The notes under the pieces were generated by a model. It did no database searches, was not told the origin of the DNA, and saw only the letters and a program-made list of their open reading frames with translations. Positions 29,199-57,480 of a DNA stretch of 64,000 nt are shown here, one piece after another. The translations under genes and the position numbers were made by a program. Source of the DNA: Eledone cirrhosa (taxonomy: Eukaryota); contig OZ024761.1 in assembly GCA_964016885.1 (NCBI GenBank), forward strand, positions 31,620,001 through 31,684,000, in the 5' to 3' direction. Every line of letters starts with the position of its first letter. Position 1 is the first letter of the stretch.

Positions 29199-29392
29199 GT
29201 TTTAATATAGCTGAGATTCTACAGGACTAGAACTGTTTCATTCTTTAGAAATCATCAGGAATCTCTGATGATTTCTAAAGAATGAAACAGTTCTAGTCCT
29301 GTAGAATCTCATCTATATTAAAACTTTTATACTCTGCTATGTATTGAGTACCTTACTTACTGTGGTTACCTCCGATTCAACCCGGAATAACG
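29199..29392. mobile_element. Short non-autonomous hammerhead element, family A (other copies ~3338-3466, ~33006-33064, ~43536-43690, ~44183-44372)
   Basis: Shared sequence gaatgaaacagttctagtcctgtagaag..tatattaaac..ttgagtaccttacttactgtggttacc..aacccgg. A ~126-bp palindrome (29199-29324) plus a unique tail, flanked by (TA)n. Confidence 0.75.
29213..29265 (-). ncRNA. Type I hammerhead, family A
   Basis: Reverse complement: GAGAUUC-CUGAUGA-UUUC UAAA GAAU-GAAA-CAG uucuaguc CUG-UA-GAAUCUC. Stem I is 7 bp, stem II is short. Confidence 0.75.
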
Positions 29393-29765
29393 TATATATA
29401 TATATATATATACATACACACTTATATATATATATATATATATATATATATATATATATATATATATATATATATACAGTCGATCGACTTTCGTCAAATT
29501 GAACCGAGGAAATAATGTTTCCATTGGTCTTTCCAATTGCTAATTTGCTAATACTTTCTAGGTAGAAGGAGTAACGTGACATAAAGTTTCTTGCTCAAGG
29601 ACAGAATGCATCGCCCGGTCCAGGAACTCACAACCTCACGATTGTGAATCCAATTCTCTTACCACTCAGTCATGTATATATATATATATACACACACATA
29701 CACACACACAAGTAAGCATGTATATATATATATATATATATATATATATATATATATATATATAT

Positions 29766-29927
29766 ATTGTTATACTTTGGGAGGGTCATGTTGCCAATAA
29801 GAAACACACGCACCAGTTGCTTTCACTTCAATTTATTATATATTTATAAATTTATAAATTTACAAATCTATAAATTTATATGCGTGTGTTTCTTATTGGC
29901 AACATGACCCTCCCAAAGTATAACAAT
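29766..29927. repeat. Inverted pair of a dispersed repeat end (tgttatactttgggagggtcat...), relatives at ~38941-39058, ~40850-41130 and ~41455-41580
   Basis: ~47-bp arms. 38941-39058 is the reverse complement of 29770-29880. All copies start abruptly from (TA)n. Confidence 0.65.
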
Positions 29928-30277
29928 ATCGGTTTCAACACACGATTTCAGATAAAGAATCTTGCTAAACAAATTCAGAAACGAAATATATATATATATA
30001 TATATATATATATATATATATATATATATATATATATATATATAAATTCAGCGAGAATCGCATTTCGGCGGGTAGAAAAAGCGAAACGTAACGCAAATTT
30101 GAGTCATGCTGGCAAGCGCTCCATGGGCTAAAAGACTAGAGCAATAAACATAGGTTATAAAGGCCATACAAACTGAGAAGGCGGTCAAGAAGCCATTAAA
30201 CACCTAAGCCAAAAAACAAGTCAAGCTAAAGGTCAGACAAAATAAATGACATAATCATATATATATATATATATATA

Positions 30278-30515
30278 TATTTATTAAAATAACAGATTAA
30301 AGTTTAAGCAAAGAATCGCTGCTTTCACCCTTAACGGGATCTTCTGAAACGGGAGTTTCAGAAGATCCCGTTAAGGGTGAAAGCAGCGATTCTTTGCTTA
30401 AACTTTAATCTGTTATTTTAATAAATATTTGCTCTACAGTTCTTATATATTTGATATATATTTTCCTTATCGAGCCCTCTTTGGATTTTAGTCTTCAATT
30501 TTATTATTATTACTA
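30278..30515. mobile_element. Fold-back short element (palindrome 30278-30428 plus tail), second copy at ~51520-51735 in opposite orientation
   Basis: Perfect ~70-bp arms. The tail ccttatcgagccctctttggattttagtcttca is found as its reverse complement at 51.54 kb. (TA)n flanks. Confidence 0.75.
30353..30405 (+). ncRNA. Hammerhead-like motif with CAGAAGA (U4A) core, present on both arms of a palindrome
   Basis: GAGUUU-CAGAAGA-UCCC guuaa GGGU-GAAA-GCA gcgauucuu UGC-UU-AAACUU. All three stems form, but the core is non-canonical at position 4. Confidence 0.55.
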
Positions 30516-54292: not shown

Positions 54293-54363
54293 TATTTTAT
54301 TATGCGCATTTCAAAAACAAATATCATCATGAGATGATATCTGCGTTTTCATCAGATAAAATA
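54293..54363 (-). ncRNA. Minimal type I hammerhead ribozyme in PLE pLTR (intact core)
   Basis: Reverse complement: UAUUUUAU-CUGAUGA-long stem II (GAUAUCAUC/GAUGAUAUU)-GAAA-UGCGCA(palindrome)-UA-AUAAAAUA. Stem I is 8 bp. Confidence 0.88.
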
Positions 54364-55510
54364 GGGATACATGATATGAAGGTTAAAAAACACTTGTGAA
54401 TAGTGAAGTTTTAAATCAACATATGAAAAATAATTTAAGATTGATGTATGAGATTGGGAAAAAGTGATGGGGGTGGAAAAGGTAAGGAAGAGGAGGAGAT
54501 GAGAGTAAAGAATGGTGGGGAGGAGTATAAGAAGGAAGGATGAGAGAGGAGGAGAGATGGGTGATAGAGAGAGAGAGATAGCCTTTACAACTGAGAAAAA
54601 TATATATTGTCTCACAGAGAGAAGTTAAAAAGCCGTTGGAAGATAATAGATAATTTAAAAGAATTTGAAATTAAAAGTTGATGAAGAGAAAAAAAGGGGT
54701 TAAGAATAATATTAAATTAAGGTTTGTATATTGAAGGGTTTAATAATATGTGCGAGGAAAAGAAATTGTTAATATGTATTATTAAAATAAAAATATTAAT
54801 GTTATTAAGGATATAATGTGAACAGAAGTAGAAGTGTGGATGAGTTATGAATTTAGAGGAATTAGTTAGTGTTTAAGTTTGTTTTTATGTAATGTAATAT
54901 GTGTGCGTAATATATGTAAATAGTTTGTTTAAAAATGAGCGCAGAAAGCAAAGAAGAAAAGAATGTTTAAGGAAGAAAATATTTAACATCAAAATATATA
55001 TGTTTACGAAATATTTTCTAATGGTAATAATATAATATATTAAAGGAAATTAGTTAGGGTTTAAGTTTGTTTTTATGTATTGTAATATGTAAAAGTCAAA
55101 CGAGCATGAAAGGAAGAGATAAGGAACTTAAGGAAGAAAAATCTAACGTCAAAAAATGTTTGTTTACGAAGGACTATTAAAGGTAATACTATAATGTATT
55201 TAAAAGATAGTAATAATTTTTATGGCCAATGATATGAAGAAAGATGGAAGAGTGGATATGTTGTGGTGTGTAATAATAAGAATTGAGAAGTAGTTAGGAA
55301 GAAAAAGTACAGATTAGAGGTTAGAAATTACAAAGAGAAAGAAAAGAGGAAGAAAGGAAAGTGATAAAGAGGAATGATATTGAATGAGTAACTTGTATTA
55401 TATAATATATAATAAATAATATTGAAATAAGGTAGAAAGATGGGTATATTTTAATAAAATATATATAAGCCTTTGAGAAAAAGGATTTTAAACTAGTAAA
55501 GTATTAGATA

Positions 55511-57019
55511 TTAGCTGTATACTTTATGGAATGTTCTGTGGAATTTATGCAAGCAGAGAGAAAATAAATCAGTGCGTCTATTTATTATAGAATCTAAATT
55601 AGATATAATGGTAAATTTCTCAGATAGGCAAAGATTACACGTTCTGGATAGGGAGGCATTCAAGTAGGGAGAGGCAGAACAAACTTTCCTCCAAAGGATG
55701 TTATAGTTAATATTTTTGTCTTTCAAGGACCATATGAGTTCTGAGAGTGCCGTGTTAGTTCTTTTAAGTTGGTATCTAAAAGACGAATCGTGATGATAAA
55801 ATCTCACTTTGAATGAGGTGGAAGTGGAACCGAAATAGGTAAAGGAATTGGTATCAGTTATAACCTTACATTCATAGACTAAGTTTTTTTCAAGACAATG
55901 GTTATTGAGAGGACATTTAGTCTTAACAGGGCAATTACAATTGCGATTAGAGAAATTAACAGAGTTATTAACAAGTGACCTAGTGTTATGTATAGGAGGA
56001 ATTGGATTGGAGAAGTTATTTACGATAGGAATAATAGTTTCCTGATTTAGATTGGTATTATGAACATTCAACGAAGTTACGTTTGACGTCGTATTTGAGT
56101 TTGCAGAATCTAGCCTAGAGTTAACAATGACGTCGGGAGTACTACTGCTATTATTATGACACTTAGTGTTGGAAGGATGTGATTTAATATTTAATATTTT
56201 ATTGTTGTGTTTAGAGATAATGTTGGAGATGTTGGTGGAATAGGAAAAGTTTATTGTATGTTTGTTAAATATTTTACTATAGATATGTGAGGGAGGGAAG
56301 CATTTATCTAAGGCCCTAAAGAATAGTTTAGGAATATTATTATTAATAGAAATATAGAAAGGAGCATTATACCAGATTATATTTTTGTATCTAGGTCTTT
56401 TATTTAAGTTATTGGAATGATCATAATTAATTATTTTACTGTAAGACCTTCTAGGATTGGTTTCTTTATTGTATTTAATTTTATCAGGATAACCGGCTTT
56501 AGAAAGCGCATTATTATAGTAATTGGCGTTAGCATCAAAGATATTTTTATTAGAGGATAGGTTTGAGATTCTTTTTCCAATATTACTAACTATAGCATTT
56601 TTAATGTTAGTGGGATGGTTAGATTTAAAATTAACATAATTTAGATTCTCATTGTTTTTATGGTAAGGGTATTATAGGCCAGTGTCAAGATTAAGGGATA
56701 TATCCAAGAAGTTAGCTAGTTTGACGTTGTTATCAAATTCGATTTTAAGGTTATGTTGCTTAAAGAGATCACGTATATTGTTCTTAATAATATTAAGGTT
56801 AACTAAATTGCAATTTAAGATAGTAAAAAGTCCATTGTCACGATAAATTCCACCGCGAAGTTGAGGAATTATCCGATTTAAAGAATTCAAAATAAAAATA
56901 CCAATCAAATCAGTCAATTGCGATGAATCAGAAGCACCCATTGTGATATCAAAGTTGTTGGAGGTATCAGCTCTAGTCCAGTATTCATTGTTGAATTCTA
57001 AGATGGTTTTTCCTCGCAC
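55511..57019 (-). pseudogene. PLE RT-thumb-GIY-YIG ORF remnant (Naiad-like)
   Basis: My translation gives one continuous frame broken only by TAA at 56672-56674. Motifs: FDITMGASDSSQLTDLIG, GIYRDNGL (YRDD degenerated to YRDN), FLDISLNL, SNHP, IIWYNAPF..KCFPPSH..KIFNKHT, CNCPVKTKCPL (CxCx5C), VYEC..YFGST..FKVRFYHH, CNLCLSEK. Confidence 0.9.
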
Positions 57020-57409
57020 ATATTATTAAACCCTTCAATATACAAACCTTAATTTAATATTATTCTTAACCCCTTTTTCTCTTCATCAACTTTTAATTTC
57101 AAATTCTTTTAAATTATCTATTATCTTCCAACGGCTTTTTAACTTCTCTCTGTGAGACAATATATATTTTTCTCAGTTGTAAAAGCTCTCTCTCTCTCTA
57201 TCACCCATCTCTCCTCCTCTCTCATCCTTCCTTCTTATACTCCTCCCCCGCCATTCTTTACTGTCATCTCCTCCTCTTCCTTACCCTTTCCAACCGCCCC
57301 CTCCCTCACTTTTTCCCAATATCACACATCAATCTTAAATTATTTTTCATATGTTGATTTAAAACTTCACTATTCACAAGTGTTTTTTAACCTTCATATC
57401 ATGTATCCC

Positions 57410-57480
57410 TATTTTATCTGATGAAAACGCAGATATCATCCCATGATGATATTTGTTTTTGAAATGCGCAAAATAAAATA
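57410..57480 (+). ncRNA. Hammerhead copy in inverted pLTR, cleavage triplet mutated (UA to AA)
   Basis: tattttat-ctgatga-...-gaaa-tgcgca-aa-ataaaata. Same as the 54.3 kb copy except for loss of the conserved U16.1 and one loop base. Confidence 0.75.

Follow-up and report, generated by a model that had tools for sequence, protein, structure and literature searches.

The window analysed here is a stretch of 64,000 nucleotides of the Eledone cirrhosa genome (GCA_964016885.1, contig OZ024761.1, positions 31,620,001 to 31,684,000, forward strand); positions below count from its first letter. Between 29199 and 57480, short islands of sequence alternate with (TA)n tracts, and a number of these islands carry a hammerhead ribozyme motif. 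The islands are very probably the 5'-truncated, often back-to-back pseudo-long-terminal-repeat (pLTR) ends of at least 12 families of Penelope-like elements (PLEs), ending in (TA)n. On this reading, the minimal type I hammerhead is part of the element and likely acts as a dimer on the precursor RNA, not in the stranded copies of the islands.

Motifs were sought with a type I hammerhead descriptor comprising stems I to III and a core of CUGANGA or its U3/A8, C4 and A4 variants; a second version, from which the strict matches come, tolerates a bulge after A9. The region contained 13 matches, against a mean of 0.02 and a maximum of 1 in 100 local dinucleotide shuffles of the same sequence, and the stricter first version found 7 (shuffle mean 0.04). 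This excess confirmed an earlier sequence-only reading, in which the motifs had been taken for real hammerheads. Fourteen of the 18 positions listed in that reading had a match within 30 nt at a relaxed cut-off, and the remaining four are damaged family members: the hammerhead at 33216 has a broken stem I (relatives at loci L193 and L344 are intact), that at 37966 has a weak stem I and was matched by the stricter first descriptor only, and those at 51050 and 57410 are mutated in the GAAA box and at U16.1, respectively. Absent from the list were a strict match at 57795–57828, just beyond the end of the range, degenerate hammerheads at 40335–40584 and 40843–41141, and a scrambled motif at 36248–36978. 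The statement that most islands contain a hammerhead was an overstatement, because strict matches occurred in only 10 of the 32 islands of 100–1200 bp; several islands of this size without one are tails of the same hammerhead families.

The same motifs were found throughout a genome sample of 59 evenly spaced 10-kb stretches (590 kb of the 3.0-Gb genome), which yielded 63 descriptor matches compared with 0–3 in each of 10 shuffles. Stem III was a perfect palindrome in 29 of these 63 matches (6 of 37 matches in shuffles), or in 41 when G–U pairs were allowed (9 of 37 in shuffles), in agreement with the short, often palindromic stem III reported in the sequence-only reading. Stems III of families A and B are longer and non-palindromic. 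By eye, a G10.1–C11.1 pair is present in families C, D, E, G and J and absent in A, B, F, H, I and K. An Rfam scan of the window (E ≤ 1) returned microRNA-like chance matches and no hammerhead family among the best 150 of 268 rows.

The families to which the islands belong connect them with PLEs. Seven of the 11 listed families run upstream, in other copies, into the reverse transcriptase (RT)/GIY-YIG gene of autonomous PLEs: families B, E, H and K, and A through a sister subfamily, are of Hydra type, and G and J are of Neptune/Nematis type. The clearest case is family H, represented in the window by a hairpin stub at 39719–40139, which is the 3' pLTR of a Hydra-type PLE with C4-variant hammerheads on the minus (39772–39807) and plus (39885–39923) strands, and by a tail-only piece at 38101–38315 (+). 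Elsewhere, an RT and GIY-YIG gene of this family lies between pLTRs on both sides (L110–L112) and bears the RWR, DKT, CxCX5C, CxxC and CxH motifs that mark the Hydra clade. The 3' end was fixed in TA in all 28 copies, with 5' ends ranging from 84 to > 1500 bp upstream. No RNA data set was listed as containing family H, and contigs from three sequencing runs of unspecified kind showed only related sequence (85%–99% identity to family H), which says nothing for or against expression. Family B, present as a hairpin stub at 30281–30513 (hammerheads 30306–30346 on the minus and 30359–30399 on the plus strand), has a Hydra-type RT and endonuclease (EN), the latter located ca. 850 bp upstream in L065, L075 and L220, where the 3' end is 99%–100% identical; the A at core position 4 is the state of the whole family. 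For the family E stub at 37752–38045 (−; U3/A8 hammerhead 37972–38002), a Hydra-type EN ends ca. 200 bp upstream of a 97%–99% identical copy in L165.

In family K, the link to coding sequence lies inside the window. The interval 54258–57609 is a 5'-truncated Hydra-type PLE on the minus strand, with an RT end and GIY-YIG frame at 55511–56671 and a pLTR hammerhead at 54301–54355, and it also includes an inverted pLTR with tail on the plus strand, whose damaged hammerhead lies at 57418. The motifs listed at 54293 and 57410 thus belong to a single coding element and mark its ends, which are inverted relative to each other, contrary to the claim that the flanks are non-coding; the families had also been called unrelated, yet the islands at 38437 and 51050 are akin (72% over 140 bp). 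Family A contributes two hairpin stubs, at 29199–29392 (minus-strand hammerhead 29220–29258; plus-strand mirror core at 29265 with stem I open; plus 3' tail) and 44184–44387 (minus-strand hammerhead 44200–44238; damaged plus-strand copy at 44244), and a minus-strand stub with tail at 43530–43700 (hammerhead 43625–43663). A sister end, 78%–86% identical, follows a Hydra-type EN at a distance of ca. 1.4–1.6 kb in 9 of 19 loci. The 3' untranslated region of this Hydra-type parent (L265:1900–3100) carries TA/TG tracts of its own, so some TA tracts beside stubs may derive from the element.

The two remaining linked families likewise lead into coding sequence. The family G stub at 38790–39058 (+; hammerhead 38857–38891) is the 3' end of a young Neptune/Nematis-type PLE, and a tail-only hairpin of the same family without a hammerhead lies at 29768–29985. 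At each of the 19 loci examined for G (L300–L318), a canonical PLE gene preceded the G end, the open frames reaching 813 residues. Given copies that are 99%–100% identical, several 813-residue open frames and at least 482 candidate places, this PLE is possibly still active. Family J is present as a stub at 45079–45438 (+; U3/A8 hammerhead 45337–45366), the 3' end of a Neptune-type PLE, and as a hairpin stub at 51206–51502 (hammerheads 51322–51351 on the minus and 51392–51421 on the plus strand). Its complete structure of inverted pLTR, RT, EN and pLTR was recovered in L345 and L346, with a Pfam GIY-YIG match above the cut-off (E 7.5e-8). The clade calls rest on protein motifs because Pfam missed the Hydra EN domains, and Neptune and Nematis were not told apart. 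Translations of G and J have a CX2-5CxxC linker before a canonical GIY-YIG domain; those of B, H and K, and in part that of E, read as a CxCX5C linker, CxxC and CxH without CCHH. The RWx/DKT region was recovered for H alone among B, E, H and K, the Pfam GIY-YIG match of H was below the cut-off (E 0.06), and the ORFs (open reading frames) of K and E are partial.

These links support the assignment of the motifs to PLE hammerheads in the sequence-only reading, as well as its alternative suggestion of solo pLTRs, a pLTR location having been found for 7 of the 11 families. Its placement of the motifs in (TA)n tracts also held, as (TA)4 or longer followed the 3' end in 28/28 copies of H, 23/24 of B and 18/18 of G. 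Its principal claim, that the islands are tiny (150–450 bp) non-autonomous elements, was not upheld: 5' ends are variably truncated and the seven families continue into PLE coding sequence. As for novelty, pLTR ends of PLEs are a published feature, and only the individual families may still count as new.

The shuffle counts and the family links together also refute chance matches in AT- or palindrome-rich DNA, or fold-back DNA transposons (miniature inverted-repeat transposable elements, MITEs), as the source of the motifs. Many islands are near-perfect inverted repeats with TA flanks, as such transposons would be, but their arms are asymmetric, their tail is one-sided and the families continue into RT genes; neither version of this explanation retains any appreciable probability.

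Several observations weigh against a PLE origin of every island. For the A subfamilies of the window, three in number, the tie to an ORF runs only through the sister subfamily, and few of their copies extend upstream. Family F, which has an arm at 38384–38790 (−; hammerhead 38442–38491) and to which the island at 50925–51173 is related (+; hammerhead at 51055, GAAA box mutated), lacked a PLE ORF in five long copies, which define a unit of ca. 2.3 kb, and is likely a non-autonomous element. Upstream extension gave no proven coding parent for family C (arm at 33167–33380, −, with a damaged hammerhead at ca. 33220–33298 and its own tail attached in opposite orientation), family D (stub at 33440–33640, −, hammerhead 33534–33561; L344, L347, L348) or family I (arm at 43833–43952, −, hammerhead 43869–43918; L214, L215, L221), D extending at least 315 bp and I ca. 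590 bp upstream elsewhere. In family B, many of the 40 best matches have hairpins with identical junctions, which could reflect secondary amplification from a hairpin master, although among 22 B cores at loci retrieved by other queries just two had these junctions. Private variants mirrored in both arms were scarce (13 in ca. 6,200 compared positions), too few to tell how the arms arise.

Such observations raise the question of whether the islands are instead independent short non-autonomous ribozyme retroelements of the retrozyme kind, each propagated by PLE enzymes from a short master of its own. This holds for the 528-bp, ORF-less unit of family R described below and likely for family F. 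Hairpin junctions recur in A as well as B, and the genome sample contains tandem short units with normal type I hammerheads from other families (L178:6638–7763, 528 bp; L172:5238–6099, 467 bp), a further retrozyme-like array of this kind lying at L113:3577–4636 (310 bp). Retrozymes have also been described as PLE derivatives in a recent preprint (bioRxiv 10.64898/2026.07.22.740005). As an account of the islands in general, however, it is unlikely in view of the coding continuations of the seven families and their varying 5' ends, and no listed island is a head-to-tail repeat. A short non-autonomous element as envisaged in the sequence-only reading does exist in the range, at 36248–36978, but it was not among the listed positions.

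With truncated PLE ends as the preferred interpretation, the genome sample gives an impression of their abundance. Its density of one motif per 9.4 kb corresponds to likely ca. 3 × 10^5 hammerhead motifs genome-wide, or roughly 2–4 × 10^5 judging from the spread of sample counts (28 of 59 stretches had no motif, and the maximum was 7). PLE-like coding sequence made up at least 3.6% of the sample and occurred in 18 of the 59 stretches. Stubs are nevertheless the rule, because an EN end lay within 2.6 kb upstream of only 8 of the 52 assessable sample hammerheads. Genome searches with individual families, in which the top 40 were scored and candidate counts are lower bounds, returned from at least 22 to ca. 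2,000 candidate places per family. The small contig C508, which duplicates part of the window at 98%–100% identity and is probably an unmerged haplotype, was left out of the counts. A (TA)6 tract was located within 250 bp of 54 of the 63 sample matches, compared with 20% of background sites, and tracts of (TA)6 or longer occupied 17.7% of the region compared with 4.0% of the sample. The fourfold higher motif density in the region is therefore explained by its fourfold richer TA content.

This relationship also bears on the idea of a locus-specific, host-selected array regulating the Hv1-like gene around it. An exon at 53922–54062 (+) encodes S3–S4 segments resembling voltage-gated proton channel 1 (E 0.0011), and the local motif density is ca. 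four times the genome mean, as might be expected of such an array. The density nevertheless follows TA content, the families are dispersed genome-wide, both strands are used and several copies are damaged, making host selection at this locus very improbable. The exon reads LPW where the usual motif has RLW. The stubs probably lie in introns of this gene.

The arms of the stubs have a regular geometry. Two fixed 3' ends per family were found in all eight families tested, using copies spanning the cut; relative to the cut they lie, for example, at ca. +25 and ca. +110 in B, at +45 and +215 in H, and at +170 and +225 in G, and the short end coincides with an AT-rich patch of the element. Among 124 divergent pairs, from loci that partly overlap and are not fully independent, 101 combined a long with a short arm, 10 were long–long and 13 short–short. 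Truncated copies in inverted orientation and a tail on one side only have been published for PLEs (PMC8557442). In the mechanism we propose, which is quite likely in its first part, the GIY-YIG endonuclease would open a (TA)n tract and the RT would start just 3' of the hammerhead and usually halt early, so that the hammerhead would be the part most often retained. In the second part, for which the odds appear about even, both target strands would prime, one at the RNA end and the other at an AT-rich site 25–170 nt past the cut, generating opposite long and short arms.

Most stubs are themselves likely to be inactive, as they are single, mutated or predicted to fold into a long hairpin. The predicted fold cost was 43–81 kcal/mol for the five hairpin-embedded motifs of the window and 1.4–10.6 kcal/mol for the other nine; most stubs are accordingly expected to cleave poorly and to form long double-stranded RNA when read through. 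In vitro, minimal hammerheads showed low activity as dimers and trimers, and a monomer showed none (PMC4209133). The role ascribed to PLE hammerheads in PMC4209133 and PMC6765202 is to act as dimers in processing tandem precursor RNA.

The scrambled motif at 36248–36978 belongs to family R, a non-coding family with a 528-bp unit whose long arm here is on the minus strand and short mirror arm on the plus strand. It had at least 4,189 candidate places genome-wide, and two sister families with units of 552 and ca. 625 bp had 1,072 and 1,517 candidates. The 3' end of the unit directly preceded a full unit in 28 of 28 top loci, although the long query favoured such copies, and tandem cores were spaced 524–530 bp apart in 19 of 25 cases. 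No PLE ORF was continuous with the unit at the loci examined. In R and both sisters, the cleavage block comes first, followed by GAAA and then CUGANGA (S-G-C order), and each arm of 36248–36978 holds a hammerhead-like fold in this order with a branched stem II; the predicted cut lies at 36379/36378 on the minus strand. The descriptor gave no type I hammerhead match in family R. A type II assignment was rejected because the stem II strands (blocks C and G), instead of pairing together, are each matched to a strand further upstream, forming helices 1 and 3.

A six-helix structure of 35 pairs was modelled for the motif. Across 10 aligned copies, this structure was 92% paired and 13 of its pairs changed on both sides, a level reached by 0 of 500 shuffles (slid controls, 27%–46%), bearing in mind that the structure was derived from the same 10 sequences and that related copies were counted more than once. 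Two-sided changes occurred in three of seven pairs of stem I, and stem III showed one-sided changes only. Among 53 distinct copies of the motif, 52 had a base other than G at nucleotide 17. A descriptor for the S-G-C order gave one match in the 590-kb sample and none in 15 shuffles, and over 1.9 Mb of loci it retrieved one sequence-unrelated motif (L137:1040–1110) with a 6-bp stem III and a 5-bp stem I. From its fold, the family R hammerhead is predicted to be self-cleaving.

Family R resembles the type-SGC, non-circularly permuted hammerhead (Eckert et al. 2023; PMC10085705) in block order, stems I and III, a linker of ca. 3 nt from stem I to block G and an extra helix beside stem I. It differs in having a branched junction in place of stem II, and the published examples in that source come from metatranscriptomes, not from an animal genome. 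Because blocks C and G do not build stem II together, R falls outside the type-SGC hammerheads as defined. As elements, R and its relatives are similar to the non-LTR retrozymes described in PMC7229834 and bioRxiv 10.64898/2026.07.22.740005, being non-coding head-to-tail units of 530–630 bp with a core per unit; unlike them, R has no type I hammerhead, and the listed families are single or inverted rather than tandem. A further connection concerns the Naiads, PLEs reported to lack canonical hammerheads, with Naiad_Ovul flagged as having a "half core" (PMC8557442). Read by eye in the supplement of PMC8557442, the 3' ends of octopus Naiads have the same six helices with different sequence; the records used precede the headers Naiad_Ovul and Naiad_Omin and, by record order, are those of Naiad_Obim and Naiad_Ovul. 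The balance tilts slightly towards an active S-G-C hammerhead with a branched stem II in R and its relatives, a topology that we did not find in print, which would drive thousands of 530–630-bp retrozyme-like elements and would be the missing ribozyme of Naiads.

The listed families, by contrast with R, closely match the minimal PLE hammerheads described in PMC4209133: a short stem I, a long stem II, a bulge after A9, a palindromic stem III and a U3/A8 variant, with many families per genome represented mainly by single motifs from truncated PLEs and by opposite-strand pairs 100–700 bp apart. Dispersed single motifs of this origin, opposite-strand pairs and the U3/A8 core had thus been described there. 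They depart from that description in the long stems III of A and B, in the C4 or A4 cores of some families and in number, with ca. 3 × 10^5 motifs here and ca. 2,000–9,000 per genome there, although the descriptors differ. Other counts, likewise obtained with other descriptors, are > 6,000 in a coral and ca. 5,000 in a mussel, and for axolotl as many as 120,000 retrozymes have been given (PMC7229834). The Hydra-type families share with the Hydra clade, including Hydra-1_Obim of Octopus bimaculoides, the C-terminal GIY-YIG domain and the DKT, RWx, CxCX5C, CxxC and CxH motifs, together with the hammerhead, (TA)n insertion, an inverted truncated copy and a one-sided tail; TA targeting by PLEs and the hammerhead of Hydra-1_Obim had been reported in the same source (PMC8557442). 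In comparison with what is published there, several further families occur within one genome, the H unit spans ca. 4.2 kb between hammerheads (usually < 3 kb) and tails are 55–170 bp long (30–40 bp), and by eye the Hydra-1_Obim hammerhead matches none in the window. Families G and J resemble Neptune/Nematis-type PLEs with C-terminal EN in their DK(S)G motif, CX2-5CxxC linker, canonical GIY-YIG domain with Cys/His and pLTR hammerhead. Penelope expansions have been reported for octopus genomes (PMC13282606, PMC8967140). In a curated annotation of Octopus vulgaris, whose available text makes no mention of ribozymes, 893 unclassified families of short interspersed nuclear elements (SINEs) are given as recently active (PMC13282606). 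Our literature search, with few subscription papers within reach, found no genome-wide cephalopod hammerhead count, no such density and, for animals, no hammerhead of branched S-G-C form. Earlier publications cover minimal hammerheads of truncated PLEs, their occurrence in pairs on opposite strands and insertion into TA; the present density is, as far as we found, unpublished.

Further remnants complete the region. A degenerate hammerhead remnant of family O occupies 40335–40584 (−), with a Hydra-type EN ca. 1.1 kb upstream in L173, and family L, akin to G, occupies 40843–41141 (−; hammerhead core ending at 41088, stem I broken). A family M stub at 57648–57851 (−) contains the hammerhead at 57795–57828, and the interval 44570–44790 is a hairpin consisting of tail only, from yet another hammerhead family, with CTAG as stem III. 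An internal, frameshifted RT fragment of a C-terminal-EN PLE at 34376–35885 (−; Pfam RVT_1 E 2.4e-10) has lost its 3' end with EN and pLTR; its reading as a Naiad was dropped, as the relative L162 has a downstream GIY-YIG domain. Repeat families at 29477–29674 and 43995–44168 have GAAA and a palindromic insert, with no matching CUGANGA box in the copies examined, and are possibly further core variants. The element at 43122–43514, with 30-bp perfect inverted repeats and TA flanks, is probably a small DNA transposon. A TA-flanked repeat of 600 bp without a hammerhead match is present in three copies (24589–25201, 48070–48664 and 48938–49567; ca. 45,000 hits by extrapolation). The window, ca. 106 kb short of the end of its contig (31.79 Mb), also contains a 16-kb array of an 11-bp unit (4467–20825) and a 4-kb array of a 40-bp unit (59930–64000).

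The main finding represents known biology at an unusual scale, with many putatively new PLE families and about one hammerhead per 10 kb, most of them on stubs. When short repeats are annotated, such hammerhead stubs could be labelled unclassified SINEs or MITEs. The pairs of fixed 3' ends offer a precise handle on how PLEs generate inverted repeats, and a candidate in vitro system could be built on family G, with its nearly identical copies and intact frame. If family R cuts, the hammerhead fold would be extended and the puzzle of hammerhead-less Naiads removed. Together with the abundant PLE hammerheads, many of them in perfect hairpins, an active family R would place this genome among the most ribozyme-dense of animals described.

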